Shown here in pieces: positions 1 through 38,139 of a DNA stretch of 64,000 nt (the stretch's first letter is position 1; each line of letters starts with the position of its first letter). The position numbers and the translations under genes are program-made. The notes beneath the pieces are model-generated. The model worked only from the letters and a program-made list of their open reading frames with translations. It had not been told where the DNA came from and ran no database searches. Origin of the DNA: Candidatus Yanofskybacteria bacterium CG10_big_fil_rev_8_21_14_0_10_36_16 (lineage in GTDB: Bacteria > Patescibacteriota > Minisyncoccia > 2-02-FULL-40-12 > IGHO2-01-FULL-4-A); contig PCXQ01000006.1 in assembly GCA_002794035.1 (NCBI GenBank), positions 24,533-88,532 on the forward strand, in the 5' to 3' direction.

Positions 1-1082
1 TTGTCGGTGTTGTTATAACCTTTTCTCTTTTGCTTATTTTTAATCTCATTTTACCTTCAATGTTTGATAACTCAGAATTTATATCTCTGGGAGCATTGTT
101 TATGCTGCCATTTATCACATTTACTTTTTATTCCATAACAAAACGTCAATTCCTTGATGTAAAAATAATAGCTACTGAAATCTTTGCAATTGTACTATCT
201 ATAATAGTTTTGTTTGATGTAATTGTCGCTAAAGATCTTGGAACAGTAATTCTAAGATCCGGTATTTTCTTAATAGTCCTATCATTTAATATTTTAATTG
301 TAAAAAGCGTTTGGAACGAGGTTAAACAAAAAGAAAAACTTGAAATATTGGCTAAAAAATTACAATCAACAAACGACAGGCTTAAGGAACTAGACATGCT
401 CAAATCTCAATTTTTGTCTTTTGCTTCCCATCAAGTCAAAGCACCAATGGCCATTGTAAAAGGATATGCTGATTTAATAGCCAAAGGAGATTATGGCGAA
501 GTACCTGAAGAAGTCAAAAACACAGCAAATAAAATCAAGAACTCAGCCGACAAAATGATAAGTCTCGTAGAAGAACTTCTGAACCTCAGAAAAATAGAAG
601 AAGGGAAAATAGAATACGACATGAAAACAAAAGATATAACATTTATAATAAAAGAGGTGGTAGACGAGCTACAAACATTGGCAGATGACAAGAAACTACA
701 CCTAAACTTTGAAACACCTACCAAACAATTCAATGCAAAAATTGATGAGGGCAAATTCAAGCAAATCATCCAAAACTTAGTTGAGAACTCAATCAAATAC
801 ACTGAGGAAGGCTGGATAAAAGTAACTATTGAAGAAAAAGATGACAGTGCCTTAATAACAGTTTCCGATTCAGGTATTGGCATGAGCAAAGAAACAACAA
901 ATGATCTTTTTGAACAATTCCATCGCGGTTCTGGAAAAAGCAGATCTATTAAAGGCACAGGGCTTGGTCTTTATATAGCAAAAAAGATGATAGAAGCACA
1001 CAACGGCAAGGTGTGGGCAGAATCTGAAGGCGAAGGAAAAGGATCTCAATTTCATGTTCAGCTACCGTTAGAATATTCGTAG
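1..1082 (+). CDS. Membrane sensor histidine kinase (HisKA + HATPase_c), 5-prime end probably truncated by the window edge
   Basis: The reading frame is open back to position 1 (TTG at 30 is only the first in-frame start). The N-terminus is hydrophobic. H-box SFASHQVKAPM; ATP-binding G-boxes SDSGIGM and GTGLGLYIAKKMIEAHNGKVWAESEGEGKGSQF. Confidence 0.8.
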   Translation, partial: VGVVITFSLLLIFNLILPSMFDNSEFISLGALFMLPFITFTFYSITKRQFLDVKIIATEIFAIVLSIIVLFDVIVAKDLGTVILRSGIFLIVLSFNILIVKSVWNEVKQKEKLEILAKKLQSTNDRLKELDMLKSQFLSFASHQVKAPMAIVKGYADLIAKGDYGEVPEEVKNTANKIKNSADKMISLVEELLNLRKIEEGKIEYDMKTKDITFIIKEVVDELQTLADDKKLHLNFETPTKQFNAKIDEGKFKQIIQNLVENSIKYTEEGWIKVTIEEKDDSALITVSDSGIGMSKETTNDLFEQFHRGSGKSRSIKGTGLGLYIAKKMIEAHNGKVWAESEGEGKGSQFHVQLPLEYS

Positions 1083-1218
1083 TTTGCCGCTTATTATATA
1101 TCCCCAAAAAACATGGAGCGTATTCTATGTTTTTTTATTTTTAAATACTTAGGCATTATTACTTATTTTTAATCCCAGCTGTGGCTAATTCAATTTTTTG
1201 TTGTGTTATAATGATTTT

Positions 1219-1647
1219 ATGGAAAATCAATTAAAACAAACTATACTTATCGTTGATGACGAAAAAGATTTTAGGGAAATTTTAGTTACCAAACTAAAAA
1301 CATTGGGCGTTAACATAGTAGAAGCCGAAAATGGAGAAGAAGCGCTTGTAAAGCTTAAGGAGATCAAGCCTGATTTAATCATGCTAGACGTAAACATGCC
1401 AAAAATGAATGGGCCAGAAACGCTTTCCCAAATTAAAGCAAACCCTGAATGGGCAGACTTAAAGATAGTTTTTTTAACCAACTATGGTGAACCGCAACAA
1501 GAAGTTGCATGGACTGATGAAAGACTGGCCCGCGAAGCTGGGGCAATGGACTATATAAGAAAAAGTGATGACCTTGATACTATCATTGGAGAGGTAATAC
1601 CCCTTATCAGCCCGTCACAATTAGACGGCCCTGAAAATAACGGATAA
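1219..1647 (+). CDS. Single-domain response regulator (CheY-like REC)
   Basis: ILIVDDEKDF...LIMLDVNMPKMNG... carries the receiver-domain DD/D/T/K signature. ATG at 1219 lies in frame inside the longer TTG ORF (1198). A TATAAT-like box lies just upstream. Confidence 0.8.
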   Translation: MENQLKQTILIVDDEKDFREILVTKLKTLGVNIVEAENGEEALVKLKEIKPDLIMLDVNMPKMNGPETLSQIKANPEWADLKIVFLTNYGEPQQEVAWTDERLAREAGAMDYIRKSDDLDTIIGEVIPLISPSQLDGPENNG

Positions 1648-1759
1648 AATCAAAGACAAAATGTTAAATAACAAATATTTTCTAATTCAAATTTTAAAAA
1701 TTTGAGTTTTTAACATTGGATCTCAGTTTAATGCTTGTCCTAAATTTTAATTTGTAAAC

Positions 1760-3502
1760 ATGGCAAAAGATGTAAGTAAAACAATTTTAATAATAGACGA
1801 CAACCCTTTCATGGTTGAGATTTTAGCGAACGAACTTAAAAACTCAGGATTCAACATAGAAAAAGCTGACAGTGGAGAAAAAGGTATTAAAAAAATAAAG
1901 GATTCAAAACCTTCATTGCTTATACTTGATATGCCCCTGCCTGACAAAGCCGATGGATTTAAAACATTAAAAGAGATCAAAGAAAATTCTAAAGACTTGC
2001 CAATATTAATTGTTTCCAACAACGATACTGTAGAATTTAGAAAAAAGGTATTGGAGGAAGGTGTAAACGGATACTTAATAAAAGCATTTGCAGGAAAAGA
2101 CGAGGTCATACAAGCAGTTAATGAAATCATGGCAGGTAAAGTTATCATGCCATCTATGGAAGAACAACCGGCATCAGAAAAAACAAAAGATGAATCAGGT
2201 GAATCGGAAGGTAAGGATGAAAATAAAATTAAATACAAAAGCCCCTTCAGCTCAACAAGTATTAACATTGGGGTTCCACCAAAAATAAAAGCAAAAATAG
2301 AAAAAGCTTTAGTTTCACCACGTGCCGAGTTATCAATAATAAACCTTGTAAATGACTTGATAGAATACGCTTACCATGCTCGTGCATCAGATATTCACCT
2401 TGAGCCATACAGTGATAGATTTATTGCAAGAATGAGAATTGATGGCATACTTCATGATGTATTTTCACTTCCCAAAAATACACAATCAGAAATTATAGCC
2501 AGAATAAAAGTTCTTGCCGGAATGAGAACCGACGAACACCAAACCGCCCAGGATGGCAGATTTAAAGCAACAATAAAAAGCCCGCCCAAACAATTTGATA
2601 TTCGTGTTTCAATAGTACCAACATATTACGGAGAAAACTCTGTTCTTAGGCTTTTGGCCGAACAATCATCCATAAAAACCATAGAGGACTTGGCATTCTC
2701 ACCAGAAGACAAAGAAAGAATAAAACGTGCAATTAAAAAACCTTACGGCATGATACTTGTCACAGGACCAACTGGTTCAGGTAAATCAACCACTCTCTAT
2801 ACTGTAATTAGAGAATTAAACAAACGTTCAGTATCAATAATCACCATCGAAGATCCAGTGGAATACTCAGTAGAAGGAATAGACCAAATACAGGTAAACA
2901 CCCGAACAGGATTAACTTTTGCAACAGGATTAAGATCAATACTAAGACAAGACCCCAATGTCATTATGGTAGGAGAAATACGAGACAAGGAAACAGCATC
3001 TATTGCGGTTAATGCGGCCCTAACAGGCCACAAACTTCTTTCGACACTTCATACGAATGACGCCGCAACGACACTGCCTCGATTGTTGGACATGGAGGTC
3101 GAACCTTTCTTAATTGCCTCAACTGTTAATGTTGTGATAGGTCAGCGTCTTGTTAGAATGTTGTGCACAAAATGCAAGAAAAAAAGAAAAATGACTGAGA
3201 CCGAGCTAAAGAACCTCACCAAGAGCATCCCCGAAAAAATATTAGGCAATCATAAAGAATTTTATGAAGTAGGCGGATGTGAAGTTTGTGGCGATACCGG
3301 ATACTTTGACAGAATGGGCATTTATGAAATTTTAGAAATGAATGATGAAATAAGAAGCGCAATATTAAGAAGAGCGGACTCAAGTGAAATAAACGAAATA
3401 GCAACAAAAAGCGGAATGAGTACTCTGCTTGAAGACGGATTTAAAAAAGTCGTTTCGGGACTGACAACGATTGAAGAATTATTAAGAGTTGTCAAAGAAT
3501 AA
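1760..3502 (+). CDS. Type IV pilus/T2SS assembly ATPase (PilB/GspE family) with an N-terminal REC receiver domain in place of the usual N1 domain
   Basis: N-terminus ILIIDDNPFMVEIL...SLLILDMPLPDKADGF...ILIVSNN...GYLIK is a complete REC domain with the acceptor Asp. C-terminal half has Walker A GPTGSGKSTT, the His box LLSTLHTNDAA, and a tetracysteine CTKC...CEVC motif typical of GspE/PilB. Confidence 0.85.
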   Translation: MAKDVSKTILIIDDNPFMVEILANELKNSGFNIEKADSGEKGIKKIKDSKPSLLILDMPLPDKADGFKTLKEIKENSKDLPILIVSNNDTVEFRKKVLEEGVNGYLIKAFAGKDEVIQAVNEIMAGKVIMPSMEEQPASEKTKDESGESEGKDENKIKYKSPFSSTSINIGVPPKIKAKIEKALVSPRAELSIINLVNDLIEYAYHARASDIHLEPYSDRFIARMRIDGILHDVFSLPKNTQSEIIARIKVLAGMRTDEHQTAQDGRFKATIKSPPKQFDIRVSIVPTYYGENSVLRLLAEQSSIKTIEDLAFSPEDKERIKRAIKKPYGMILVTGPTGSGKSTTLYTVIRELNKRSVSIITIEDPVEYSVEGIDQIQVNTRTGLTFATGLRSILRQDPNVIMVGEIRDKETASIAVNAALTGHKLLSTLHTNDAATTLPRLLDMEVEPFLIASTVNVVIGQRLVRMLCTKCKKKRKMTETELKNLTKSIPEKILGNHKEFYEVGGCEVCGDTGYFDRMGIYEILEMNDEIRSAILRRADSSEINEIATKSGMSTLLEDGFKKVVSGLTTIEELLRVVKE

Positions 3503-3580
3503 AATTAAATAATTAAATAATTTAAATTGAAAAAATTTAACCTACAAAAACTATTTCTTCATATCTCCCTAAAGGAGCAA

Positions 3581-4600
3581 ATGCTTTTTGCTAAACACAT
3601 GTCAGTAATGATAGGTTCCGGCATGCAAGTCATACAAAGCTTAAACACACTTAAGGAACAGGTGGACTCTCGTTCATTTAAAATGATTTTGGATGATTTA
3701 ATAAATGACACAAAAAGCGGGCAATTTTTGTCCACCAGCTTAGAAAAATACAAAAATGTATTCAGTGAATTTTTTATAAACGTAATAAGGGTCGGAGAAG
3801 CAAGCGGAACACTGCCTGAAAACTTTAAATACCTTGCCGAAGAACTTAAAAAACGACAAGAACTAGCAAACAAAATAAAAGGTGCGATGGTTTACCCAGT
3901 AATAATATTGATAGCAACATTTGGCATAACAGGATTGCTGGTATTTTTCATATTTCCCAAGATACTCCCCGTGCTTAAAAGCATAGATGTAGAACTGCCT
4001 GTTTTGACAGTATATTTTATTTCAATATCTGAATTCACCTTCAAATATGGTTACTGGTTATTTGGCGGTGTGATTGCCCTAATTATAGGAATATGGGGCA
4101 TATTAAGAATCAGGCCTGTAAAATTTTTGTGGCATAAAATAATACTAAAAATACCCATAGTTAACAAAATGTCACAAGCTATAAACATGATAAAATTTTC
4201 AAGAACCCTGGGACTTCTTTTAAAAAGTGACGTAAAAATAGTGGAATCACTAAACATCACATCAAACACTATCAGTAATCTGGTTTATCAAAAAGCAATC
4301 AGAGAAACTGCTAACAGTGTTCGTATGGGTGATCAAATATCAAAATATTTAGCGACAAAGCCGCATCTTTTCCCAAAACTTTCAACCCAGATGATATCAG
4401 TCGGGGAAAACACAGGAAAATTAGATGAATCAGCTTTTTATCTGGCTGATTTCTATGAAAGCGAATTGAATGAAACCACCAAAACTCTTTCAAATGCAAT
4501 AGAGCCCATCCTTCTTCTGGCAATGGGACTTATCGTAGGATTTGTGGCACTAGCTATAATAACTCCTATATATAAAATAACACAAACATTGTCCCGTTAA
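3581..4600 (+). CDS. PilC/GspF-type inner-membrane platform protein (short, ~340 aa)
   Basis: GspF-family sequence pattern (MIGSGMQVIQSL..., GEASGTLPENFKYLAEEL) with hydrophobic segments. ATG at 3581 is preceded by AAGGAG; the longer TTG ORF from 3527 is less likely. Confidence 0.8.
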   Translation: MLFAKHMSVMIGSGMQVIQSLNTLKEQVDSRSFKMILDDLINDTKSGQFLSTSLEKYKNVFSEFFINVIRVGEASGTLPENFKYLAEELKKRQELANKIKGAMVYPVIILIATFGITGLLVFFIFPKILPVLKSIDVELPVLTVYFISISEFTFKYGYWLFGGVIALIIGIWGILRIRPVKFLWHKIILKIPIVNKMSQAINMIKFSRTLGLLLKSDVKIVESLNITSNTISNLVYQKAIRETANSVRMGDQISKYLATKPHLFPKLSTQMISVGENTGKLDESAFYLADFYESELNETTKTLSNAIEPILLLAMGLIVGFVALAIITPIYKITQTLSR

Positions 4601-4727
4601 TGATAAAAATTAACAAAAATACCAGTTTTACCAAAAATACCAATGAGTATTTTGTTTTTTCTCATAAAAATAAGGGATTCACCCTGCTCTTGTTAAATGG
4701 TTTATTAACTAAATTTTTAAATTAGTC

Positions 4728-7421
4728 GTGAAATTTAAAATAGCAAAAATATTTTCTTATGATAATTTTCCCTTTTCAAGGGCGGGGTTCACAATCTTGG
4801 AAACTCTTATTGCTGCTGCACTATTTGTTATCATTGGCGGAGGTATATATTTAGCCTACTCAAATATACTTGAAATAATCACTAGGGGACGGCTTGATGC
4901 TGAAGCCGCTTTTATTTTGGAAAAAGAAATAGAAATAGTAAGGAACATGTCTTATGAAAATATTGGAACCACAACAGGAGCACCATTTGGCAAATTAAAA
5001 AGTGAAAAAACTGTAATAGCAGGTAATATACCTTTTGTTTTAAGAACTACTGTCAGAAACATAGACCATATTTTTGACGGCAAATTAAAAGGCAAGAATA
5101 ATATAGCCAATCTAGATGTAGGTGCTCAAGTTGGAGAAGGAGGGTTAAGAATGGAAAACCAATCTAAAATAATAGGGGATGTGTTTTCAAACGGCGACAT
5201 AATTGGAACCGGTAATTCTAATATTACAGGGAGTGCATGGGCTGCAGGATCTAGCAAAATTGATACAGTCAATGTGGCTAATGATGTTCATGCAAATACT
5301 ATACTTAACAGCTTTGTGGGAAGAGATGCTTATTACAAAAACATTTCCAATACAACTGTAGTTGGTAATTTGTTTTCTAATGTCCCGGATATTGAACCCC
5401 AAGAGCTTCCAATATCACCCCAACAACTGGCTGAATGGAAAACACTCGCTGCTGAAGGAGGCACTATCCCGACCCAAACCATAAGCGGATCCAATATTGT
5501 TCCTCTTGGACCAATTAAGATAAACGGAAATCTTACCATAAGAAATTCCGGACGCTTAATAATAACAGGGGTAATCTGGGTCACAGGAGATATTCTTATG
5601 CAAAATGATGCGGTAATTGAGATCGATCCGTCATTTGGAATGTTAAGCGGTCTGATAATCACAGACGGCAGTGTAATGATAAGAAATGAATCTGCCATAT
5701 GCGGGTCTGAGGGTTATAACACTTCAACCCAGACATGTAACCCGCCTGACTCAAGCTTTGTTTTCATAGTTTCAACAAAAGAAACCCTTGAAGATCCGGC
5801 TATAACAATAAATAACGCATCTGACTTAAGAACTCTTGTACATGCCAACAACGGAACAATAAATTTAAAAAATGCTATCCAACTAGTTAATGCTACGGGT
5901 TATTCAATTTTATTAGAAAACACCGCGTCAGTTATATATGACGAGGATTTGGATGATGTAGAATTTGGTTTTGGATCATTGGCATCAGTCCAAGAAGATC
6001 TGGCGCCAGGGGACTACAAACTGGTGGAAATTGAAATAAGCTGTCCTGAATGCACACTACCATTCACACCCAAAAAAGTTACCGCCACCGTAGCTCCACA
6101 GGGCCTTGAAACAGTAAGTAGAAATGGATCATTGTTTATTAATGCAATTGATGCATCGGGTGACTCCACAGCAAATGCTACTGTGCATGTTGTTAATAAT
6201 TCTGCCAATCCTCCAATTGACATCACTGATGTAACCGGCTCTGATGGCAAACTCCAGATCATTGATGTAGCCACAGGATCTTTTACATATGAAATTATTG
6301 TTTCTAAAGCAGGATATTCCACCGAACAAACATATCTGCCAGGGGAACCATCGAACCCCAATCCTGTTAAACCTCATGCAACGGTAGCAGAACAAGACGT
6401 AACTGAAATTACTTTCGTCATAGACAGAACTAGCACCATGAACCTAACCACAAGCGATTACATATGTTCTCCTGTGGCTGACATTAATTTCCTACAGGAA
6501 GGAAGCAAGCTCATAGGCCAAAGCCCAGATGTATTAAAATATTCTGAGAACCTTTCAACAGACACGAACGGAAATTACACAAACAACTCACTGGAATGGG
6601 ATACATACAATTTATCTCTAACTGATTCCGGATTTGACCTGGCTGGAACTGATATTCTTATGCCTTTGGTTATTAACCCAAACACCAACAGAAATATCAC
6701 CTGGACAGTAAAGCCCAAATTTTCTAATTCACTTCTCGCTGTAGCAAGAGACACAAACGGAAATTTTGTAAACGATGCCGAGGTTACAGTATCAGGCCCA
6801 GAAACCAAATCTGCTTTTACTGGTCTGGCATCCATATCTTATACTGACTGGTCGGGGGGCAATTATGACTCTCAAAGCGGAGGAATCGCAACAACGCCTG
6901 CGGGACAGCTAACCTTGGTTGATTTAGGAGGAAACAAATATGCTTCAAACAGTGAGGAGTGGTTAATTTCCAACACTATTGATTTTGGAACATCAACAAT
7001 ATTTTATGGAAAAATTGATTGGGACCCCAAAAACCAGCCAGCTCAAACTGGAGCAAATAGCTTAAAATTCCAAATAGCAGCAAACAACGATAACAACACC
7101 TGGAATTTTGTAGGACCTGATGGTTCCTCAAACACTTATTACACGACCGCAAAAACCGATATTTACAGTCAGCATGATGGGAATAGATATCTAAGATATA
7201 AGGCATATCTACAAACAGTAGACCAAGGGTTCACCCCATTATTAGATAAGATAATCATAGAGTTTAACTCAAGCTGTGTTCCTGAAGGGCAAGCCCTTCT
7301 AAACAATTTACCGAATGGATCATACAACATAACAATAGATCACCCGGGTTATAAAACATACAATGACAACATAAATATAAACAGCGAGTGGCAAGAATAT
7401 AGAGCCATTTTGGTTCCATAA
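4728..7421 (+). CDS. Giant (897 aa) pilin-like protein: class III signal peptide, N-terminal pilin helix, large beta-rich adhesin-like body
   Basis: GTG start. Leader MKFKIAKIFSYDNFPFSRAG|FTILETLIAAALFVII has G at -1, F at +1 and E at +5 (prepilin peptidase site). Body contains beta-helix-like G/N/S-rich repeats and carboxypeptidase-regulatory-like segments (GSLFINAIDASGDSTANATVHVVN...KAGYSTEQTY; ITIDHPGYKTYN). Confidence 0.7.
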   Translation: MKFKIAKIFSYDNFPFSRAGFTILETLIAAALFVIIGGGIYLAYSNILEIITRGRLDAEAAFILEKEIEIVRNMSYENIGTTTGAPFGKLKSEKTVIAGNIPFVLRTTVRNIDHIFDGKLKGKNNIANLDVGAQVGEGGLRMENQSKIIGDVFSNGDIIGTGNSNITGSAWAAGSSKIDTVNVANDVHANTILNSFVGRDAYYKNISNTTVVGNLFSNVPDIEPQELPISPQQLAEWKTLAAEGGTIPTQTISGSNIVPLGPIKINGNLTIRNSGRLIITGVIWVTGDILMQNDAVIEIDPSFGMLSGLIITDGSVMIRNESAICGSEGYNTSTQTCNPPDSSFVFIVSTKETLEDPAITINNASDLRTLVHANNGTINLKNAIQLVNATGYSILLENTASVIYDEDLDDVEFGFGSLASVQEDLAPGDYKLVEIEISCPECTLPFTPKKVTATVAPQGLETVSRNGSLFINAIDASGDSTANATVHVVNNSANPPIDITDVTGSDGKLQIIDVATGSFTYEIIVSKAGYSTEQTYLPGEPSNPNPVKPHATVAEQDVTEITFVIDRTSTMNLTTSDYICSPVADINFLQEGSKLIGQSPDVLKYSENLSTDTNGNYTNNSLEWDTYNLSLTDSGFDLAGTDILMPLVINPNTNRNITWTVKPKFSNSLLAVARDTNGNFVNDAEVTVSGPETKSAFTGLASISYTDWSGGNYDSQSGGIATTPAGQLTLVDLGGNKYASNSEEWLISNTIDFGTSTIFYGKIDWDPKNQPAQTGANSLKFQIAANNDNNTWNFVGPDGSSNTYYTTAKTDIYSQHDGNRYLRYKAYLQTVDQGFTPLLDKIIIEFNSSCVPEGQALLNNLPNGSYNITIDHPGYKTYNDNININSEWQEYRAILVP

Positions 7422-7432
7422 TAAACAAAACC

Positions 7433-7567
7433 ATGAATCTTCATAAAGTTTTAAAAAAATTACTTAGCAATATATCTCCCTCTTCAAGGGCGGGGTTTAC
7501 CCCGCTCTTGAAGATGGATGCGCCTTTTTATCTAATATTTATCAGTAATCACCCTGTTAGCTCATGA
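7433..7567 (+). pseudogene. Truncated duplicate of a pilin 5-prime end (44-codon ORF MNLHKVLKKLLSNISPSSRAGFTPLLK...); its TGA stop overlaps the ATG of the next pilin gene (ATGA)
   Basis: Nucleotides 7433-7500 nearly repeat 7564-7632. It encodes the same leader as the downstream pilin, then diverges. An embedded hairpin tcttcaagggcgggg-ttta-ccccgctcttgaaga is present. Confidence 0.45.
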
Positions 7568-8199
7568 ATCTTCTTAAAGTTTTAAAAAAAATACTTAGCA
7601 ATATATCTCCCTCTTCAAGGGCGGGGTTTACATTAATAGAAATAGTAATCGGATTGGCCATAATGTCTATTATAGTTATTTTAATCGGGTCTTTTGGGCT
7701 TGATATTTTAAGCTCTCAAACATCATTTAGTAGAACACTTGAAATACAAAGCGAAATAAATCAAACATTCAAAGAAATTATACCCGAAATTCGCTCAATG
7801 GAAGAATCAGAAAATGGAGCTTACCCAATTATTTCGGCATCATCGGATTCATTTGAATTTTATAGTGATGTGGATAGCAACGGAACAGTAGACAAAGTAA
7901 GATATTTTGTTGATGGAAGTGAGATGAAAAGAGGAACAACAAAACCCTCAGGCAACCCGCCTGTTTATGATCCGTCTGATGAAAAAATTAAAAGATTAAT
8001 TTCTGATTTAACTTTAACATCAGCGGGCATGTTTAAATATTACGATAAAAATTTCACGGGATCCGAAAACTCATTGGCAGTTCCCGTAAGCATACCGGCA
8101 ATAAGATTAATCAGAATTGAAGCAATAGTTGACCCCAAAATACCGGGCTCATCAAATTTTGTTTCATCAATGCAGGCAACGCCCCGTAATTTACGCTAA
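7564..8199 (+). CDS. Minor pilin / pseudopilin (prepilin-type N-terminus)
   Basis: Leader MNLLKVLKKILSNISPSSRAG|FTLIEIVIGLAIMSIIVIL with F at +1 and E at +5; 211 aa. Confidence 0.7.
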   Translation: MNLLKVLKKILSNISPSSRAGFTLIEIVIGLAIMSIIVILIGSFGLDILSSQTSFSRTLEIQSEINQTFKEIIPEIRSMEESENGAYPIISASSDSFEFYSDVDSNGTVDKVRYFVDGSEMKRGTTKPSGNPPVYDPSDEKIKRLISDLTLTSAGMFKYYDKNFTGSENSLAVPVSIPAIRLIRIEAIVDPKIPGSSNFVSSMQATPRNLR

Positions 8200-8223
8200 A
8201 ATAAAATTTTAGAGTTTAGAATT

Positions 8224-9651
8224 ATGAAATTAAAAATTAAAAATTTGGAAGCAGGCCAACTTTCCCTCTATGTTTTAATTTTCGGCTCTGTAGCTATTGT
8301 TATACTGTCTGGATTTATACTTTGGGCTGACTTAAGCTTTAAAGCAGCAATAAGACAAACAGATCGGCTTTTGGCGCTTGAAATTGCTGAATCAGGCATT
8401 GAATACTACCGCTGGCATTTAGCTCATGTCCCCGATGATTTTCAGGATGGAACAGGAGAACCAGGACCATATGAACATGATTTCTTTGATAAAAACGGGA
8501 ATATTATTGGCAAGTTTACGCTTGAAATAACTCCGCCCTCAGAATCCTCGGGAGTTGTAATTATAAAATCTACAGGAACCGTTGATGTTGATGATAGTAT
8601 TGAAAGAATAGTTGAAGCTCGACTAGCTCTGTCGTCTCTTGCGGGATATGCCATTGTTTCAAATGACAGCATACACATAGGGCAAGGCGCGGAAGTGTTT
8701 GGACCAATACATTCAAATGGAGGTATAAGCTTTAACGGGATTGCACACCATATTGTAACCAGCACCAGAGAAACATATGACGACCCCGCTCACGCAGGAG
8801 TGGAAGAATATGCAGTACACACCCACATAAACCCTGCTGACCCTCTACCCCCAAATCCATTACAAAAAAGACCTAGTGTTTTTAAAGCAGGGCGTGATTT
8901 CCCTGTTCCGGCGGTTGACTTTGATGGCATTGCCAGAGATTTGTCAGATATAAAAACCGGCGCTCAAGCTAGTGGATCATATTTTGGACCCTCAAGTGCT
9001 GAAGGTTATCGTGTAGTCCTGAAAACAAATGATACTTTTGATTTGTATAAAGTTAATTCACAAATTGCACCGCCTGCCGGATGCACCAACGACTTAAGCG
9101 AATCAGACTGGGGGACATGGAGTATCGATTCTGAAACATTTTTAAATAATTATGCACTTCCTTCAAACGGACTTATTTTTTTTGAAGATAACGCATGGAT
9201 TGAAGGTGAAATTGACGGTGAGCGTCTCACCTTGGCTACGGGTATTTTTCCTGAATCACCTGGTAATTACAAGCATATTATAGTAAACAATAATCTAACT
9301 TATTCTAATATTAATGCCCGAGACAAACTGGGCCTGGTAACACAAGGCAATATTATTATAGGAATGGAAAGCACTGGCGACTTGCGTATTGATGCAGCAA
9401 TAGTGGCTAAAAACGGGCGGGTAGGCAGGTTTTATTACAATCCAAGCTGTTCTCCGTACCACAACAGACAATCCTTAACAATTTATGGAATGATAGCAAC
9501 TAACGAAAAATATGGTTTTGCCTATACAGACGGTACAGGATATCAGCAACGATCCATTACATATGACCCAAGATTACTGTCTGATCCGCCTCCGGGGTTT
9601 CCTTCTGATGCCGGATTTTATGAAATTATAAGTTGGAAAGAATTAAAATAA
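8224..9651 (+). CDS. Pilus-associated protein with a PilX-N-like N-terminus (475 aa)
   Basis: N-terminal hydrophobic helix followed by ...DRLLALEIAESGIEYYRW, resembling the PilX N-terminal motif. Located inside the pilus operon. Confidence 0.55.
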   Translation: MKLKIKNLEAGQLSLYVLIFGSVAIVILSGFILWADLSFKAAIRQTDRLLALEIAESGIEYYRWHLAHVPDDFQDGTGEPGPYEHDFFDKNGNIIGKFTLEITPPSESSGVVIIKSTGTVDVDDSIERIVEARLALSSLAGYAIVSNDSIHIGQGAEVFGPIHSNGGISFNGIAHHIVTSTRETYDDPAHAGVEEYAVHTHINPADPLPPNPLQKRPSVFKAGRDFPVPAVDFDGIARDLSDIKTGAQASGSYFGPSSAEGYRVVLKTNDTFDLYKVNSQIAPPAGCTNDLSESDWGTWSIDSETFLNNYALPSNGLIFFEDNAWIEGEIDGERLTLATGIFPESPGNYKHIIVNNNLTYSNINARDKLGLVTQGNIIIGMESTGDLRIDAAIVAKNGRVGRFYYNPSCSPYHNRQSLTIYGMIATNEKYGFAYTDGTGYQQRSITYDPRLLSDPPPGFPSDAGFYEIISWKELK

Positions 9652-9754
9652 TATTTACTGTGGATAAAAGCCCTTAAAAACCTAGGGTTTTAGTGCTAAC
9701 CTAAAGCTATGAAATAGGTCGATAAAAAGCCCAAAAAATAGTTTGGGCAAAATA

Positions 9755-9772
9755 TAAACTGAGCTCAGTTTA
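9755..9772. promoter_or_regulatory. Perfect 18-bp palindrome TAAACTGAGCTCAGTTTA upstream of the major pilin gene (candidate operator)
   Basis: Perfect dyad seen in the sequence 30 bp upstream of the pilA-like ATG. It is preceded by the hairpin gcccaaaaaatagtttgggc at 9729-9748. Confidence 0.4.
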
Positions 9773-9803
9773 TTTTATTAATTAAAATCAACTAAACTAA
9801 AAA

Positions 9804-10274
9804 ATGAGTAAATTATTTAAGACGAAGAAATCACAGGCAGGGTTCACTCTTATTGAATTATTGGTTGTAATAGGTATTATTGCCATTTTGGCAGCGGTAG
9901 TTATTATCGCCATAAACCCAGCCCGTCAGTTCGCACAAGCCAGAAATACCCAGAGGTGGTCAAATGTTAACGCCATCTTAAATGCTATCGGCCAAAACAT
10001 GGCTGATAACCGTGGTGTATTTAACTGTGGTGTTGCATTGCCAGCATCAGCATCGGTTATGTCTAACACAGGATACAATATATACACCTGTATAGTTCCT
10101 ACTTATATATCAACCTTACCAGTGGATCCTTCAGTTGGAGTTAACAATTCTCCAACAGACTACAATACTGGCTACACTGTAGCAAGAGATGCTTCAACAG
10201 GTAGAATTACTGTTAGTGCTCCTGAAGGATTAAACGAAACCGCAGTTCCAGAAAACATTGGCGTAACTAGGTAG
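9804..10274 (+). CDS. pilA: Type IV major pilin (PilA-like)
   Basis: MSKLFKTKKSQAG|FTLIELLVVIGIIAILAAVVIIAI is the classic type IVa prepilin N-terminus. 156 aa. A strong terminator follows directly. Confidence 0.85.
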   Translation: MSKLFKTKKSQAGFTLIELLVVIGIIAILAAVVIIAINPARQFAQARNTQRWSNVNAILNAIGQNMADNRGVFNCGVALPASASVMSNTGYNIYTCIVPTYISTLPVDPSVGVNNSPTDYNTGYTVARDASTGRITVSAPEGLNETAVPENIGVTR

Positions 10275-10293
10275 TAATTCATATCACAAAACT

Positions 10294-10318
10294 AAAAACC
10301 GCCCACAAGGCGGTTTTT
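10294..10318 (+). terminator. Rho-independent terminator after the major pilin
   Basis: aaaaaccgcc-cacaa-ggcggttttt. Confidence 0.75.
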
Positions 10319-10430
10319 AGTTTTGTGCAATTTAATTTGTGAATATAAAAATTTAAAAATAATGGTATCATTAAAAAAAGACTAAAGATTTCTAACCAAC
10401 TTCTCCTAATTTAAAAAATGGGATTTGAAA

Positions 10431-10466
10431 TTTGATTAGAAATTAGAAATTAGAAATTAGAAATTT
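10431..10466. repeat. Tandem heptamer repeat (TTAGAAA) x4 in a promoter region
   Basis: gattagaaattagaaattagaaattagaaattt. Similar repeats occur at 22560-22590, and (AAAATCC)n at 18039-18072. Confidence 0.7.
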
Positions 10467-10710
10467 AAACATATCAAAAATAAATATAGCAATATTAATT
10501 TCAACAGTACTTCTGGGTATAGCTATATTTCCATATACTGCTAAAGCCCAAGATGTAAAAACATACGAATTTAATCCCGATAAATCTTGGAGATTTATAT
10601 ACCCAAGCGCAGAAACAGTATCTCTCAAATTCCAACCATCAAACGATGCCGTAAACGGTTTTGATCTTTGGATAAACAATGGAGGAAGCCAAGGCCAGGC
10701 AACTTTTGTT

Positions 10711-12192
10711 TTGCGTAATTCATTCGGTACTGTTTTAGCTCAAAAAAATAATGTATTCATAAATCCTATACCTCTAAAGGAAGGCGGTACGCGTTTTCAT
10801 ATAAACCTGCCCGCCCAAGTTCCATTAAACATTAATGAGGTATATGAACTTGAAATAATAAGCGACATGGGAGGATTGGGCCTTTACTATGGAGCGAGCG
10901 TTGAAATACTTCAACACGACTCCGAATACAACATAAGCTATATCCCGGGCAAAGCTGTGATTGATAATGAAGAACAAAGCTGGACCTTTAAGTATGCAAC
11001 CTATGAGAGTCAGGATGCTCAGCCGCCAGAACTATCAAACATTTCAGCAACAGTAACAAACTCAAATACAGTAGAGATAAATTTCAATGCCAACGAGCCT
11101 GTTGACTGGTCAATTCTTTGGGGCTTTGAAGGCCAGGACTATAACCAGCAAACAGGATTTAAAAATTATTACACCTCATGTTTACCCGGTATAGGAACAT
11201 GCAATACACCTCTCCAAGTTAACCCAAATACTGCATATGATTACCAAATCATTGCCAAAGACGAATGGGGAAATATAAGCCAAAGAACAGGCTCTTTTAA
11301 CAGCGCGGTGGTTGATACCGAACCAACACCAACAGGATCACCCGAATCAACACCACCGCCTCAAGAAGTATTCTCAACTCCTCCTGCAATATCAGGCACA
11401 ACAATATCGGAATTAACAGATGATTATGTAAAAATAACCTGGCAAACAAATAAAGCCGCCAACTCCAGCTTGTTGATCAGCCTTGATCAAGACGGGAACA
11501 GTGTTGTTGCTAATGTGGGAGATGCAACTTATGAATTAGCTCACTCGCTAAGCGTCTCGGGTCTTGAACCAAACACTGAATACTTTGCAAGAATAACTTC
11601 AACAAATCCGGGGGTAGCATTCGTAGTCAGCAAAAATCTAGCCACAATAATATCAAGCAGTAACAACGATACATCCTCATGGCAAATATTAACATTCAAA
11701 ACCGCAGAAGCACCCCTACCCGATGAAGCCCCGAACAACGAACAACCCAGCAATAACGAAATTGAAACAAGTCAGGAAACAGATGGGATTGAATCAACTG
11801 TAAATATAAGCTGGCAGGCTCCTTCGGGCGGTGAACCCACGGGCGGATACAGAGTAGATGTTTTTGATGAAAATAATATTTTAGTAAAACAGATAACAGT
11901 TCCCGCAGGCGAGCACAGCACAACGGCCGAAGATTTGCCAAGAGGCGATTACACAGTAGTTGTTTATGAAGACAACGAAGGAACACTAGATAAAATTGCG
12001 CCTCCTGCAATAAGCCGTGCGCCAGAACCATCAATAACAAATACTCAAGTTGTAATAATTGGAATTTTGATTCTTGTCTTGGCAGGACTTATAAAGATCT
12101 GGCTAAGTGTAAGGAAGAAAAATAAGTTCAAAAAAACTATTACACCCCCTTCCTCAGATTCTTCAAGCGGAATAGAGCTTGGACAAATTTAA
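10711..12192 (+). CDS. Cell-surface protein with Fn3-like repeats, Thr/Pro-rich linker and a C-terminal TM anchor; the true start is probably upstream (about 10471), where the frame encodes a signal peptide
   Basis: The frame is open back to the stop at 10450 and encodes KINIAILISTVLLGIAIFPYTAKA|QD, but contains no ATG/GTG/TTG there. Fn3-like segments (VEINFNANEPVDWSILWGF; VKITWQTNKAANSSLLISL; VNISWQAPSGGEPTGGYRVDVFD). C-terminus VVIIGILILVLAGLIKIWLSVRKKNKFKK. Confidence 0.6.
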   Translation: MRNSFGTVLAQKNNVFINPIPLKEGGTRFHINLPAQVPLNINEVYELEIISDMGGLGLYYGASVEILQHDSEYNISYIPGKAVIDNEEQSWTFKYATYESQDAQPPELSNISATVTNSNTVEINFNANEPVDWSILWGFEGQDYNQQTGFKNYYTSCLPGIGTCNTPLQVNPNTAYDYQIIAKDEWGNISQRTGSFNSAVVDTEPTPTGSPESTPPPQEVFSTPPAISGTTISELTDDYVKITWQTNKAANSSLLISLDQDGNSVVANVGDATYELAHSLSVSGLEPNTEYFARITSTNPGVAFVVSKNLATIISSSNNDTSSWQILTFKTAEAPLPDEAPNNEQPSNNEIETSQETDGIESTVNISWQAPSGGEPTGGYRVDVFDENNILVKQITVPAGEHSTTAEDLPRGDYTVVVYEDNEGTLDKIAPPAISRAPEPSITNTQVVIIGILILVLAGLIKIWLSVRKKNKFKKTITPPSSDSSSGIELGQI

Positions 12193-20531: not shown

Positions 20532-20608
<77 letters not shown>

Positions 20609-22261: not shown

Positions 22262-22335
22262 GGCAGGGTAGCTCAGCTGGTTAGAGCGAGGGACTCATAA
22301 GCCCTAGGTCGCGGGTTCGAATCCCGCCCCTGTCA
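22262..22335 (+). tRNA. tRNA with CAU anticodon (elongator Met or lysidine-modified Ile2)
   Basis: Acceptor ggcaggg/ccctgtc (one G-U), D-arm gctc-agctggtta-gagc, anticodon loop cuCAUaa, T-arm gcggg-ttcgaat-cccgc. No CCA encoded. Confidence 0.75.
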
Positions 22336-22402
22336 CTGCCAAAAAATTGAGTAACTAAACAAACCTAGACACCCCACCATGGTGGGGTCATCGATGCTAT
22401 AT

Positions 22403-24343: not shown

Positions 24344-24396
24344 CCCACACTCATTTGTCGCACATCATCTATGAAATCGACAAATTAGTGTGGGGG
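24344..24396. repeat. Palindromic hairpin CCCCACACTCATTTGTCG...CGACAAATTAGTGTGGGGG overlapping the 5-prime end of tRNA-Asp
   Basis: 18-bp stem with 1 mismatch. Shares the CCCCACACTCAT arm with the palindrome at 16675. Confidence 0.55.
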
Positions 24397-24465
24397 CGTA
24401 GCTCAACTGGTCAGAGCGCTGCCCTGTCACGGCAGAGGTTGCGGGTTCAAGTCCCGTCGCTCCCG
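24392..24465 (+). tRNA. tRNA-Asp (GUC)
   Basis: Acceptor gggggcg/cgctccc, anticodon arm ctgcc-cuGUCac-ggcag, T-arm gcggg-ttcaagt-cccgt. No CCA encoded. Confidence 0.8.
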
Positions 24466-24654
24466 CTTCAATAAATTAAAACGGCATAAATGCTGTTTTA
24501 ATTTGGTGCAATGTTTGAGAGTAAGGGGACTTGAACAGTCCCGCAAAGCGGGACAAGGTTCAGCTCAAATTTTTAACGCCCCGCTGTGTTTCGTAAACTC
24601 AACACAAAGCGGGACTAAATTTGAGGATTAAAGCCAAGCAGTTGGCTTTAATCG

Positions 24655-31151: not shown

Positions 31152-31194
31152 ATAATTTGCACTAAAAGTTTTTAATAAAAAATAAATTAATTTA

Positions 31195-31728: not shown

Positions 31729-31754
31729 TAAATAATTAATATTAAAATAATCTA

Positions 31755-32120: not shown

Positions 32121-32234
32121 CATTTAATAAAAATAAAAACTAATAAATCAGGCTATAGTACTAAAACCTTGAACAACCAAAACACGGGATATCTCAGACT
32201 TGGCACTTTTAGCTTATGGTTTATCTAAAAGTAA

Positions 32235-34025: not shown

Positions 34026-34038
34026 AGGTTTGCAATTA

Positions 34039-35205: not shown

Positions 35206-35233
35206 AACTTATAAATAGTTTCTAAGTTTATAA

Positions 35234-36621: not shown

Positions 36622-37284
36622 ATGTTAATTGTCAAATACCAATTCATCGTGTCGATTTTAAATAGTATAAAAAACCTTTTCGTTATAAGCCCAGACAGAA
36701 AGGGCCCCAAAGGTTTTACGTTGGTCGAGTTATTGGTTGTTATAGCCATCATTGGTATTTTGGCAACATTGTTATTGCTTCAATTGGCTGTTGCCAGAGG
36801 TAAGGCTAGAGACGTTAAAAGAATTGCCGATGTTAACCAAGTTAGAACCGCTCTTGAATTGTGGTTCGACGACAACGCAGCCCAATATCCAGCAACAATG
36901 GACTTGTATAGCGACATTGTTCCTAAATACATAGGACAATTACCACAAGATCCTCTTGCTGCTGGTGGTTGCAACACAGATGCAGGTGGCAATCCTAGGT
37001 ATGATGGAACTGCAGTTGGTACTGTTAACTGTTACGGTTATGCTTACCACCCCGATGGTGTTGCTTCAGATCCTATAAGATTCCAGGTATGGTCACAGCT
37101 TGAGCAATGGGCCCCTGCATTAGGTTCTGATGCTGACATTGACTCAACAGGTGCAGGTGTTAATGGTAACCCTTGGCCAGCTGCTGGAGCAGGAGCAACA
37201 GTAGAGGGTGGTTTGGATGATGTTACTGCCAACTGTGACGACGCCACCCCTGGAGATTGCATATACGACCAAGGAATTCTGTAA
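36622..37284 (+). CDS. Type IV pilin (start uncertain; likely an internal GTG about 36649)
   Basis: ...PDRKGPKG|FTLVELLVVIAIIGILATLLLLQLAVARGKARD; Gly/Ala-rich C-terminal region. Confidence 0.7.
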   Translation: MLIVKYQFIVSILNSIKNLFVISPDRKGPKGFTLVELLVVIAIIGILATLLLLQLAVARGKARDVKRIADVNQVRTALELWFDDNAAQYPATMDLYSDIVPKYIGQLPQDPLAAGGCNTDAGGNPRYDGTAVGTVNCYGYAYHPDGVASDPIRFQVWSQLEQWAPALGSDADIDSTGAGVNGNPWPAAGAGATVEGGLDDVTANCDDATPGDCIYDQGIL

Positions 37285-37300
37285 AATACTCTTAGTTAGT

Positions 37301-38128
37301 GTGATACAAAACAGTATTATCTTATTCATAATCGGTACAGTAATAGGAAGCTTCCTAAATGTTCTCATTTATAGAATACCGATAGGCAAAGATTTCATTT
37401 CGGGCAGGTCATCCTGCCCGAAATGTTATAAAGTGATACCGTGGTACGGTCTTTTTCCGGTTTTTAGTTATGTCTTTCAACGAGGAAAATGCTTGTTTTG
37501 CAAAGAAAAAATAAGCATTCAATATCCTGTCATTGAAACTATTTCAGGGCTGATTTTTGTTGGAACATCAATGTTTCTATACAGCCCTTTCTTATCAATA
37601 CCCGATTTAACTTATTGGCTTTTTTATATTGCAATAATTGAAATAACATTATTACTATTTGTTATAGACTTAAAACACTTCATACTCCCTGACTCACTGG
37701 TATTATCTCTTCTTGTTGCTTTCGGAGCTTATTACTTAACAACGCAAATTCTGGGAATATCTCCGGACTATGTCCAATCCTCTCTAACTATCCAAAACAG
37801 ACTCTTAGGAAGTCTAGTAATAGGCGGCGCTTTATTTCTGCTATGGTTTTTATCCAAGGGCAGGGCTCTGGGGTTTGGTGATGTAAAGTTAATGTCTGTG
37901 CTGGGTATAATTTTTGGCTTAAAAGGTGGTATAATAATATTTTACATGGCAATGTTTATCGGCTTAATTGTTGGCTTGTTTCTAATTTTTTTCAAACAGG
38001 CAGACCTAAAGACAAAAGTGCCATTCGGAACATTTATAGGATTGTCTGTCCTAACATACATATTTTTCTATAATCAAATTATATCCTATGTTAATTTTTT
38101 AATACTAAGAGCGTTCACAACAGTATAG
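37301..38128 (+). CDS. pilD: Prepilin peptidase (A24 family) PilD
   Basis: GTG at 37301 in frame. Zinc-binding pairs CPKC...CLFC; catalytic Asp motifs IDLKHFILPD and GFGDVKLMSVLG; polytopic. Confidence 0.8.
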   Translation: MIQNSIILFIIGTVIGSFLNVLIYRIPIGKDFISGRSSCPKCYKVIPWYGLFPVFSYVFQRGKCLFCKEKISIQYPVIETISGLIFVGTSMFLYSPFLSIPDLTYWLFYIAIIEITLLLFVIDLKHFILPDSLVLSLLVAFGAYYLTTQILGISPDYVQSSLTIQNRLLGSLVIGGALFLLWFLSKGRALGFGDVKLMSVLGIIFGLKGGIIIFYMAMFIGLIVGLFLIFFKQADLKTKVPFGTFIGLSVLTYIFFYNQIISYVNFLILRAFTTV

Positions 38129-38139
38129 TTTTATAACAA

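Follow-up and report, generated by a model that had tools for sequence, protein, structure and literature searches.

The gene considered here occupies positions 4728..7421 of the + strand of the window, by which we mean the whole 64,000-nucleotide stretch of Candidatus Yanofskybacteria DNA that was analysed. Its reading frame, taken from the ORF list and translation, opens with a GTG (the leading M of the product is a V codon read as start), closes with a stop codon at 7419-7421, follows an in-frame stop at 4710-4712 and encodes 897 residues, position and length being those of the original prediction. The product is identical to the NCBI entry "hypothetical protein COV29_03815" of a Candidatus Yanofskybacteria MAG. 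All the neighbours described below lie on the + strand as well. Sequence motifs of the translations suggest a histidine kinase at 30-1082 and a single-domain response regulator at 1198-1647, and this pair (30..1647) stands upstream of the pilus genes. The latter begin with an assembly ATPase of the PilB/GspE family bearing an N-terminal REC domain (1760..3502; NCBIfam GspE/PilB; Pfam T2SSE 407.6 bits and Response_reg 90.3 bits) and a platform protein PilC/GspF (3527..4600; NCBIfam; Pfam T2SSF 179.5 bits). Downstream of the 897-aa gene come a 211-aa minor pilin with the leader ...SSRAG/FTLIE, the slash marking the predicted cleavage site (7564..8199; Pfam N_methyl 27.3 bits, TIGR02532), a 475-aa PilX/GspK-like protein whose signal ...LEAG/QLSLY is devoid of Glu at +5 (8224..9651), and a 156-aa pilin with KSQAG/FTLIE (9804..10274; Pfam N_methyl 36.7 bits, TIGR02532), which is likely the major subunit of the PilB/PilC-cluster system. 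The assignment of the 475-aa protein comes from hhalign against the PilX-like family profile (probability 91%, E = 1e-6, residues 1-172) and makes it a candidate for the top-most cap subunit; BLASTP found no similarity between it and the 897-aa protein. A strong terminator-like hairpin with a 19-bp stem (10285..10327, consensus scan) closes the operon, whose order is REC-PilB, PilC, 897-aa gene, 211-aa pilin, 475-aa PilX-like gene, 156-aa pilin and terminator. The same scan returned no comparable hairpin in the + strand gaps flanking the 897-aa gene, and a promoter scan gave no more matches than expected from shuffled sequence.

This gene order is shared well beyond the window. Homologues of the 211-aa and 475-aa proteins follow the homologue of the 897-aa protein in all 80 related loci, the 211-aa one directly; PilC is present in 71 and PilB in 68 of them, nearly always directly upstream, and a homologue of the 156-aa pilin in 47. 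A 41-aa ORF at 4600-4725, whose KNKG/FTLLLL resembles a prepilin signal, has no counterpart in these 80 loci, and we regard it as a chance frame or a remnant. PilT and PilM/N/O genes are missing from the first cluster; PilT sits in a second pilus cluster of the window together with the prepilin peptidase PilD (peptidase A24; 37208..38128, + strand; Pfam A24_N_bact 102.5 bits, Peptidase_A24 47.8 bits).

The 897-aa protein begins with MKFKIAKIFSYDNFPFSRAG/FTILETLIAAALFVIIGGGIY, that is, with a class III signal of the form ...SRAG/FTILE. The 20-residue leader MKFKIAKIFSYDNFPFSRAG (4728..4787) ends with Gly at -1, the predicted cut falls before Phe21, and the mature N-terminus FTILE, with Glu at +5, opens the alpha1 helix (residues 21-72; 4788..4943). 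AlphaFold renders alpha1 as one continuous helix of about 50 residues (23-72 or 18-72), hydrophobic first and amphipathic after, and so bears out the long pilin N-terminal helix that had been proposed. The prepilin call from this sequence alone would be weak: the Pfam N_methyl match (residues 18-41, 16.7 bits) lies below the cut-off of 21.2, and the NCBIfam scan returned no family and no TIGR02532 match (the pilin signal goes under PF07963, TIGR02532 and IPR012902). The family alignment confirms it. In an alignment of 136 relatives, all 122 with a residue at -1 have either Gly (116) or Ala (6) there. Phe occupies +1 in 83 relatives, the residue being otherwise M, L, T, Y, I or V; 122 relatives have Thr or Ser at +2; and at +5, 131 of 132 have Glu (125) or Asp (6) and one has His. 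Gly-1 and Glu+5 are thus nearly invariant, which is not what an ordinary Sec signal, with no conservation of a +5 Glu, would display. Several homologues have a precomputed PF07963 match, one is named by NCBI [quoted passage not shown], and the same leader class occurs on three other minor pilins within the window. A leader with Gly at -1, Phe at +1, Glu at +5 and a predicted helix of about 50 residues are accordingly all present, as are genes for PilD, PilB and PilC.

Behind alpha1, the first half of a pilin globular module (residues 73-118; 4944..5081; AlphaFold model 1 and alignment A1) comprises strands 93-98 and 101-112 and closes with the family motif RNIDxxFDG; this region is 65% identical to the N-terminus of the relative P0003 and holds invariant columns in A1. 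The chain then departs into an inserted beta-helix cassette (residues 119-417; 5082..5978), with a confident beta-helix at about residues 125-415 (AlphaFold, pLDDT 90-98 over about 130-405), flanked by a single alpha-helix (231-243) and provided with a Cys325/Cys337 loop. The pilin module resumes at residues 418-464 (5979..6119), a segment that adjoins the N-terminal part in insert-free homologues and carries strands 430-438 and 449-455 (model 1), the motif APxDYKLVEI and Cys439-x-x-Cys442, both cysteines being kept in at least 90% of 99 relatives. Strands 430-455 are presumed to pack onto the pilin strands 93-112. A beta-helix had been rightly announced, and is predicted with high confidence in the model, but it lies inside the pilin module and is no part of a C-terminal body.

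The body proper starts with a CarboxypepD_reg (transthyretin/CnaB-like) beta-sandwich (residues 465-555; 6120..6392; Foldseek and Pfam PF13620, the latter at residues 474-553 with 49.8 bits against a cut-off of 32.3) and continues with a second, Ig-like sandwich of nine predicted strands (residues 556-665; 6393..6722), to which the Pfam scan assigned no family and whose Cys580 is kept in at least 90% of the relatives. Residues 666-705 (6723..6842; four strands in model 1, Big_1 matching weakly at 666-710) probably form the first half of a CarboxypepD_reg/PEGA-like sandwich that is split. Between this and the C-terminus lies a conserved beta-rich domain (residues 706-852; 6843..7283), in which 90% or more of the 99 relatives agree at 17 of 147 columns (motifs W708, GPDG 796-799, RY 823-824, TP 836-837 and Cys850) and for which neither Pfam nor PDB gave a match. 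The C-terminal half-domain (residues 853-897; 7284..7418) corresponds to the second half of the CarboxypepD_reg/PEGA profiles: it reaches 21.2-21.6 bits with Pfam PEGA and aligns only to profile positions 37-70 of CarbopepD_reg_2/CarboxypepD_reg. From the strand counts and this half-domain match, residues 666-705 and the C-terminal half-domain may together make up one split sandwich. The carboxypeptidase-regulatory-like modules that had been claimed are hence found above the Pfam threshold at 474-553 and as a partial, PEGA-like second copy at 857-887.

Because the pTM of the AlphaFold model of the 897-aa protein is 0.43, its domain arrangement is undefined. Foldseek with the whole model gave only generic tandem-sandwich matches of low TM-score, among them Gram-positive pilus adhesins with stalks of tandem CnaB/Ig domains (TIE 6fwv, E = 2e-9, PitA, SpaA, SpaC) as well as phage tail adhesins; this resemblance of the body speaks for an adhesin. 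Sequence searches of the PDB with the protein and two profiles gave nothing significant. For the beta-helix, Foldseek found no significant neighbour (best E = 0.017), the best structural ones being the non-enzymatic DUF3494 ice-binding proteins and tapirins. Conservation is spread evenly over the body among the 99 relatives, with no hypervariable tip domain. Host-specific adhesins less typically show this pattern, which would also agree with a structural role or one in partner binding.

A typical member of the family has about 590 aa and no beta-helix, the cassette being an insertion of about 296 residues within the pilin module that is missing from most homologues and occurs in about 4% of loci; longer members (720-1443 aa) bear other modules. 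The insertion falls between RNIDxxFDG and APxDYK, motifs that are contiguous in the ~590-aa homologues, and all four insert-bearing proteins carry it in this same loop (4/4). Over about 290 residues the insert is 38-44% identical (E down to 1e-76) to the beta-helix of free-standing PilX-like proteins, the PF14341 PilX_N / PF23981 DUF7305 proteins of Patescibacteria. When the core-family profile was compared by hhalign with the PilX-like protein P0191, nothing similar appeared outside the insert, and we dropped the idea of a detectable homology between the two pilin modules. As the homology to the PilX-like family is confined to the insert, the 897-aa protein is a chimera and not a member of that family. 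Global MAFFT alignments of the target and core family with the beta-helix family or its fragments (A2, A3) misplaced the beta-helix onto the C-terminal body and were discarded; alignments A1 and A4 were used, each separately.

We put at about 70% the probability that the product is a modular minor pilin of a type IV pilus, acting in the following manner. The N-terminal hydrophobic helix would insert the protein in the membrane, where PilD (37208-38128) would cut after Gly20 and methylate Phe21. Together with the 211-aa protein and the 475-aa PilX/GspK-like protein without Glu5, it would form a priming complex on the PilC platform, beneath which the REC-fused PilB ATPase, probably controlled by the upstream kinase and response regulator, would polymerise the 156-aa pilin. 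The priming complex would reach the filament tip, and the 897-aa protein would there expose some 800 residues, with the beta-helix in the pilin-module loop followed by the beta-sandwich stalk and the conserved beta-rich domain. Patescibacteria have neither an outer membrane nor a secretin, so that such a bulky subunit could be extruded. As Glu5 is present in the 897-aa protein and missing from its 475-aa neighbour, the former is predicted to belong to the tip complex without being its top-most subunit. Most likely the protein is displayed as an adhesin within the tip complex of the pilus, with attachment to a surface or to a glycan or protein of a host cell as its most likely role. Unusually large for a type IV pilus subunit, and encoded by an ultrasmall (CPR/Patescibacteria) bacterium, it would then probably be a pilus-tip attachment protein of a kind already known.

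Modular pilins are indeed an established class, defined by a pilin module joined to at least one domain non-specific to pilus biology (Raynaud et al. 2021, PMC8179133), and here PF13620 and the predicted sandwiches and beta-helix are such domains. [quoted passage not shown] As in PilB (pilin and vWA) and PilC (pilin and lectin) of Streptococcus sanguinis, a class III signal is combined with bulky modules in a monoderm-like host without secretin; unlike these pilins, with which it shares no sequence homology, the protein carries five or six extra units instead of one, and its beta-helix interrupts the pilin module instead of following it. It is in this respect an unusual nested variant of the modular minor pilin.

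Domains inserted in the pilin beta-sheet have been described for ComZ and GspK (PMC8179133). ComZ of Thermus thermophilus (PDB 6QVI) is a minor pilin with a large beta-solenoid in the pilin module, proposed to be exposed at the tip, and the analogy with it that the original prediction had drawn holds for the architecture, a beta-solenoid in a pilin-module loop, but not for homology (Foldseek E = 2.1, TM 0.25, probability 0.11; no sequence match). Our protein differs further in being acidic whereas ComZ is proposed to bind DNA, in the additional C-terminal body of about 430 residues and in an insert that is optional in the family. With the GspK/PilX-type cap pseudopilins and the GspI-J-K (PilV-W-X) tip complex it has in common that three minor-pilin-like genes lie together beside the machinery and that one of them, here the 475-aa neighbour, is without Glu5; GspK, too, has a domain inserted in the pilin beta-sheet, but since our protein retains Glu5 it is not the GspK equivalent, and its pilin module, unlike the inserted beta-helix, has no profile similarity to the PilX-like family.

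In the cultivated patescibacterium Nanosynbacter lyticus TM7x (Saccharibacteria), which has two distinct pili with PilT and PilD in only one of the systems, the minor pilins PilX1 and PilX2 bear large accessory domains and are proposed to be tip adhesins (PMC11623550). The likeness, which was compared by description, extends to the 897-aa protein, although this comes from Paceibacteria and the accessory folds of the TM7x pilins are jelly-roll or beta-propeller. PilY1/PilC tip adhesins, large proteins held at the pilus tip via minor pilins, are a functional analogy only: PilY1 does not belong to the pilins, and its defining feature is a C-terminal beta-propeller, of which neither the Pfam scan nor the Foldseek matches of the 897-aa protein gave any sign. 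The initiator minor pilins CofB and TcpB of type IVb pili are also large and tip-located, with a long leader peptide and C-terminal beta-repeat/beta-sandwich domains on a linker; in this case, however, no PDB chain matched by sequence, both were absent from the top 50 Foldseek matches, and the machinery is of PilB/PilC type, with other type IVb markers absent.

Other readings of the locus have to be weighed against a tip adhesin. The prepilin signal might serve only as a membrane anchor or build a very short pseudopilus, leaving the body on the cell surface instead of a long filament, in the manner of the archaeal class III-signal "bindosome" proteins or of T2SS pseudopilins. A very large subunit could impede polymerisation, the cluster is without PilT or PilM/N/O, and the T2SS profiles GspE, GspF and GspG/H score about as strongly as the type IV pilus profiles on the neighbours (NCBIfam). 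We nevertheless consider this unlikely: the operon has a small pilin of its own and ends in a strong terminator, PilB and PilC keep their place in the gene order, Glu5, which is required for packing between pilin subunits, is conserved, and the PilT-less system of TM7x does build a thin filament (PMC11623550). The reading as an ordinary Sec-secreted or lipid-anchored protein with a prepilin likeness by chance could invoke the sub-threshold N_methyl match and a 20-residue leader longer than classical type IVa leaders. It is effectively refuted by the conservation of Gly-1, Phe+1 and Glu+5 across 136 relatives, by the three bona fide minor pilins of the window with the same leader class and by the invariant order with the pilus machinery genes.

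Two further proposals concern what the beta-helix would do. Patescibacteria probably rely on nucleic acids taken in from outside, which would suit a ComZ-like DNA receptor for natural transformation, in which the tip of a competence-type pilus would catch extracellular DNA by means of the beta-solenoid. The insertion topology is that described for ComZ (PMC8179133), the cluster itself lacks a retraction ATPase, PilT being in the second cluster, and in one related locus (L001) the homologue has a ComEC-type gene about 10 kb away. The charge of the protein speaks a different language: with a pI of 4.4 for the mature protein, and 13 K+R against 32 D+E (pI 4.2) in the beta-helix, this acidity argues against DNA uptake and for adhesion. 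Since, moreover, about 96% of the family do without the beta-helix while the operon is conserved nonetheless, and ComZ is similar neither in sequence nor significantly in fold (E = 2.1), a DNA receptor seems improbable to us. More doubtful still is an enzyme delivered by the pilus, a polysaccharide lyase or hydrolase acting on the host cell wall with the sandwiches as carbohydrate-binding modules. Pectate lyases and many phage depolymerases fold as right-handed beta-helices, descriptions of PF13620 speak of a carbohydrate-binding-like fold, and pectin methylesterase and polygalacturonase occur among the Foldseek matches; these last, however, have E > 1 and probability < 0.1, the Pfam and NCBIfam scans yielded no catalytic family, and the better neighbours, DUF3494 proteins and tapirins, are non-enzymatic.

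Most Patescibacteria are uncultivated and the cultivated ones live attached to host cells. Within the Paceibacteria branch, the conserved three-gene minor-pilin set recurs in at least 386 species-level genomes, and the family of the 897-aa protein offers a testable candidate for a pilus-tip attachment device in this large uncultivated group. No concept is changed by it, given that modular pilins, ComZ-type insertions and large tip pilins of Saccharibacteria are already described; its nested domains, a beta-helix inside a pilin module, would represent an extreme of modular-pilin design free of the limit that a secretin sets on size.

The history of the cassette deserves a word. The insert-bearing proteins are scattered in the tree of the body, with insert-free nearest neighbours, and the four inserts are monophyletic in 1.5% of 200 bootstrap replicates, in trees built by neighbour-joining only and with distances near saturation. 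The cassette was thus probably gained more than once, the alternative being a single gain followed by many precise losses. A diversity-generating retroelement was considered on account of a bAvd-like gene adjoining one homologue (L002) and rejected, the sole repeat there being an internal duplication of PilC on a contig too short to speak to a reverse transcriptase farther away. It is tempting to speculate, though we hold the idea as tentative and somewhat short of even odds, that the RNIDxxFDG-APxDYK loop is a recurrent "plug-in" site into which the PilX-like cassette was transplanted independently in several Paceibacteria lineages. If true, the tip complex of these episymbionts would be an evolvable recognition device working by cassette swapping, like the exchange of modules among phage tail fibres. 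The usual home of the beta-helix cassette is the PilX-like cap protein of the other pilus system.

The 897-aa protein under study is read from a GTG start codon on the + strand (4728-7421), and an in-frame stop at 4710-4712 makes a longer reading impossible. Its sequence is identical to the NCBI entry 'hypothetical protein COV29_03815' (Candidatus Yanofskybacteria bacterium CG10_big_fil_rev_8...; a Patescibacteria/CPR MAG), the G+C content of the window is about 36%, and translation returns the N-terminus MKFKIAKIFSYDNFPFSRAG|FTILETLIAAALFVIIGGGIY exactly as the original prediction had written it. Taken alone, this protein gives weak profile support for a prepilin signal: Pfam N_methyl reaches 16.7 bits against a threshold of 21.2, and a NCBIfam scan produced no match. 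An exhaustive HMMER search retrieved 431 cluster representatives at E <= 1e-30, and 136 relatives could be aligned over the first 118 residues. Of these, 116 have G and 6 have A at position -1, 83 have F at +1, and 122 have T or S at +2; at +5, 125 carry E, 6 carry D and one carries H. The sequences lacking the motif are mostly N-terminally truncated gene calls. AlphaFold2 predicts a single unbroken helix over residues 23-72 (18-72 in model 2), which matches the length expected of a pilin alpha1. At the level of sequence, conservation across the family settles that the prepilin signal is real, as the proposed class III signal with Glu at +5 had anticipated, and the chance that the N-terminus is instead an ordinary Sec signal is, against this conserved motif, negligible.

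Two AlphaFold models were used to delineate the architecture, one of the whole protein from a 14-sequence alignment (mean pLDDT 80.5, pTM 0.43) and one of residues 1-470 with 32 homologues of the insert; the pTM of the former leaves the arrangement of domains undefined. Following alpha1, model 1 places strands at residues 93-98 and 101-112, a beta-helix with one flanking helix (231-243) at 133-403, two strands (430-438 and 449-455) bearing the conserved Cys439-x-x-Cys442, and from there beta-sandwich domains to the C-terminus. The beta-helix that had been proposed from the repeats is thus borne out by prediction, with pLDDT values of 90-98 in model 2. The carboxypeptidase-regulatory-like modules were likewise recovered: Pfam assigns CarboxypepD_reg to residues 474-553, while at residues 857-887 the match to the CarboxypepD_reg/PEGA profiles is confined to their second half. 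Together with the strand counts, this half-profile match points to a last sandwich made of two separated parts (666-705 and 853-897), with a conserved beta-rich domain of no assigned family (706-852) lying between them. Among 99 relatives, cysteines 439, 442, 580 and 850 are conserved in at least 90%, and conservation runs evenly along the body, with no hypervariable domain. The mature protein consists of 35% N+S+T+G and is acidic (pI 4.4, and 4.2 for the beta-helix).

The typical family member of about 590 aa aligns in two pieces only, at residues 20-118 (65% identity to the homologue P0003) and 415-897 (55%), so that the present protein carries an insertion of about 296 residues. The beta-helix of another patescibacterial family, with proteins of 420-450 aa, shares 38-44% identity with this insert. 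Members of that family have a PilX_N-type N-terminus (PF14341; also DUF7305) without Glu5, and JGI labels one of them 'Tfp pilus assembly protein PilX'. In its longer members, additional domains (LVIVD repeats, DUF5649/DUF4082) lie within the helix; one of these, P0191, is encoded by the final gene of a minor-pilin set adjoining PilM, a position corresponding to the LamG-bearing PilX-like gene of the second pilus cluster of the window. In the core family, the insert occurs in only 4 of 158 retrieved proteins and in 3 of 80 genomic loci, always in the same loop between RNIDxxFDG and APxDYK. Neighbour-joining of the body scatters the proteins that carry the insert, and those closest to them are insert-free (P0002 lies at a distance of 0.23 from insert-free P0010). 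In a tree of the inserts, all four form a single clade in 1.5% of 200 bootstrap replicates, and P0002 and P0043 pair in 100%. These trees are suggestive only, distances being near saturation and the method simple, of two or three independent acquisitions. Other members of the family (P0045, P0055, P0069, P0083, P0103 and others; 720-1443 aa) match our protein in three or four separate stretches, which indicates that modules other than the beta-helix have also been inserted or appended in this family.

The gene lies in a co-directional row (30-12192) made up of a histidine kinase (30-1082), a receiver-only response regulator (1198-1647), a PilB/GspE ATPase with a fused REC domain (1760-3502), PilC/GspF (3527-4600), the giant pilin itself, a 211-aa minor pilin with the junction SSRAG|FTLIE (7564-8199), a 475-aa protein without Glu at +5 whose first 172 residues match a PilX-like profile (8224-9651; hhalign 91%), a 156-aa pilin (9804-10274), a terminator-like hairpin with a 19-bp stem (10285-10327) and a 493-aa fn3 protein with a C-terminal transmembrane anchor (10711-12192). 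A kinase, a stand-alone receiver and a receiver fused directly to PilB, all upstream (30-3502), suggest that pilus assembly is switched by phosphorylation. A 41-aa ORF (4600-4725) overlaps the stop codon of PilC (TAATG) and encodes MIKINKNTSFTKNTNEYFVFSHKNKGFTLLLLNGLLTKFLN, with a prepilin-like 'G|FTLL' lacking both Glu5 and a globular part; a search of 80 related loci turned up no counterpart, which makes a chance ORF or a decayed remnant the probable explanation. Rfam matches in the window are confined to three tRNA genes, two of them for Met (CAT) and one for Asp (GTC) (20532-20606, 22262-22336 and 24392-24466).

Scanning one genome per GTDB species yielded 386 relatives, the best 80 of which served for neighbourhood counts; they are titled Yanofsky-, Wolfe-, Lipton-, Taylor-, Giovannoni-, Harrison-, Komeili-, Portnoy- and Magasanikbacteria, with generic Patescibacteria/Paceibacteria titles and a few implausible ones. 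Homologues of the 211-aa and 475-aa proteins lie directly downstream in all 80 loci. PilC (71 loci) and PilB (68) are directly upstream in nearly all cases; the 156-aa pilin is found nearby in 47, and REC is fused to PilB in 14, as it is next to P0003 (L004). Most loci lacking PilB or PilC end at a contig boundary, and in the insert-bearing loci L005, L006 and L064 both genes lie downstream on the opposite strand. The giant pilin and its neighbours form a fixed cassette whose adjacency is not due to chance, and our protein belongs to a very conserved three-gene set of Paceibacteria. The fn3 gene accompanies the cassette in 32 of the 80 loci and sometimes stands between the giant pilin and 211-aa pilin genes. 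Records for L005, L006, L076 and many TPA_asm loci bear the names 'uncultured Gammaproteobacteria', 'Candidatus Aenigmatarchaeota archaeon' or 'Candidatus Saccharibacteria'; on Paceibacteria-type operons these are probably placeholder or mis-binned labels rather than a sign of occurrence outside Patescibacteria. On the contig of P0002 (L002, 1888-2256), a 122-aa gene matching bAvd and 23S_rRNA_IVP sits between PilC and the pilin gene. bAvd is an accessory protein of diversity-generating retroelements; neither a template/variable repeat pair nor a reverse transcriptase was seen in this 7-kb contig.

Several other readings of the protein were weighed. A surface-anchored protein that never polymerises is unlikely, fitting poorly with the conserved Glu5 and with a dedicated pilin in the operon. 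A ComZ-like DNA receptor is less probable still, given the acidic composition, an insert that is optional within the family and the lack of homology to ComZ; the N-terminal model matches ComZ (6qvi) at E = 2.1. Tests of homology to ComZ, PilY1, CofB and GspK/PilX were all negative. That the beta-helix might be an enzyme, for which fold class is the sole argument, appears very improbable. Structure searches with the N-terminal model gave no match at E <= 0.001; among the best were DUF3494 ice-binding beta-helices (6eio, probability 0.99, E = 0.045) and tapirin C-terminal domains at E = 0.2-0.8. With the whole model, Foldseek retrieved surface proteins and sortase pilins of Gram-positive bacteria that contain tandem CnaB/Ig-type domains (TIE of B. 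anthracis, 6fwv, at 2e-9; PitA, SpaA, SpaC and BcpA), at low TM-scores as expected of flexible multi-domain chains, and a viral library gave phage baseplate and tail adhesins made of similar domain strings. PDB sequence searches with the protein and its family profiles found no related chain.

The most likely reading is a modular minor pilin. The conserved motif, the predicted folds, the operon with its conservation and the PilD gene are shown here; that the protein is processed, enters a filament, sits at its tip and serves adhesion is inferred. GspI-J-K and PilV-W-X are tip complexes, and by analogy the Glu5-less 475-aa protein would cap the filament, with the giant pilin and the 211-aa pilin directly beneath, while REC-controlled PilB acting on PilC would polymerise the 156-aa pilin under these tip subunits. 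The bulky body would be carried outward, which is possible as there is neither outer membrane nor secretin; the sandwich domains that form its stalk and the conserved domain at 706-852 would contact a ligand, joined in this lineage by the beta-helix.

The class of modular pilins has been described before: a global survey ranks N_methyl plus PF13620 with the 15 commonest architectures, many of its examples coming from CPR, and cites ComZ and GspK as pilins whose beta-sheet has taken in inserted domains (PMC8179133). Our protein falls within the definition of a modular pilin, and is an uncharacterised one in which an internal insertion is combined with a C-terminal graft of several domains. The window also contains a second type IV pilus cluster (30582-41826), more complete than the first, which comprises a PilO-like gene (31195-31728), PilB (32235-34025), PilT (34135-35205), PilC (35234-36448), a 220-aa pilin (36622-37284), the peptidase A24 PilD (37208-38128), three minor pilins (38863-39477, 39592-40143 and 40295-40852) and a PilX-like protein bearing a lectin-type LamG/Laminin_G_3 domain (40852-41826). 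Like the window, TM7x (Nanosynbacter lyticus, a cultivated Saccharibacteria) possesses two pilus systems with PilT and PilD in one only; in that bacterium a thin pilus that binds the host is built by the system without PilT, and large minor pilins with accessory domains are proposed as tip adhesins (PMC11623550). The giant pilin is a good candidate for host attachment in an uncultivated radiation, a proposal unlikely to surprise a specialist.

The SRAG|FT junction is shared with three further minor pilins of the window, two of which share nearly the whole 20-residue leader MKFKLIKTLFNNDFPYSRAG; all four genes have the same 14-nt core TCAAGGGCGGGGTT, which encodes SRAGF. Two adjacent minor pilin genes of the second cluster are near-identical over about 95 nt (39564-39694 and 40267-40397), a stretch that takes in the entire leader MKFKLIKTLFNNDFPYSRAGFT and 28 nt 5' of its ATG, after which the two genes diverge; this pattern suggests recent duplication or gene conversion limited to the 5' end. 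The called N-termini of homologues P0004 and P0006 contain tandem prepilin-like motifs (e.g., ...KAGFTPLEAHKLLTGFTLLETIV), which may reflect starts mis-called upstream or duplicated leader segments.
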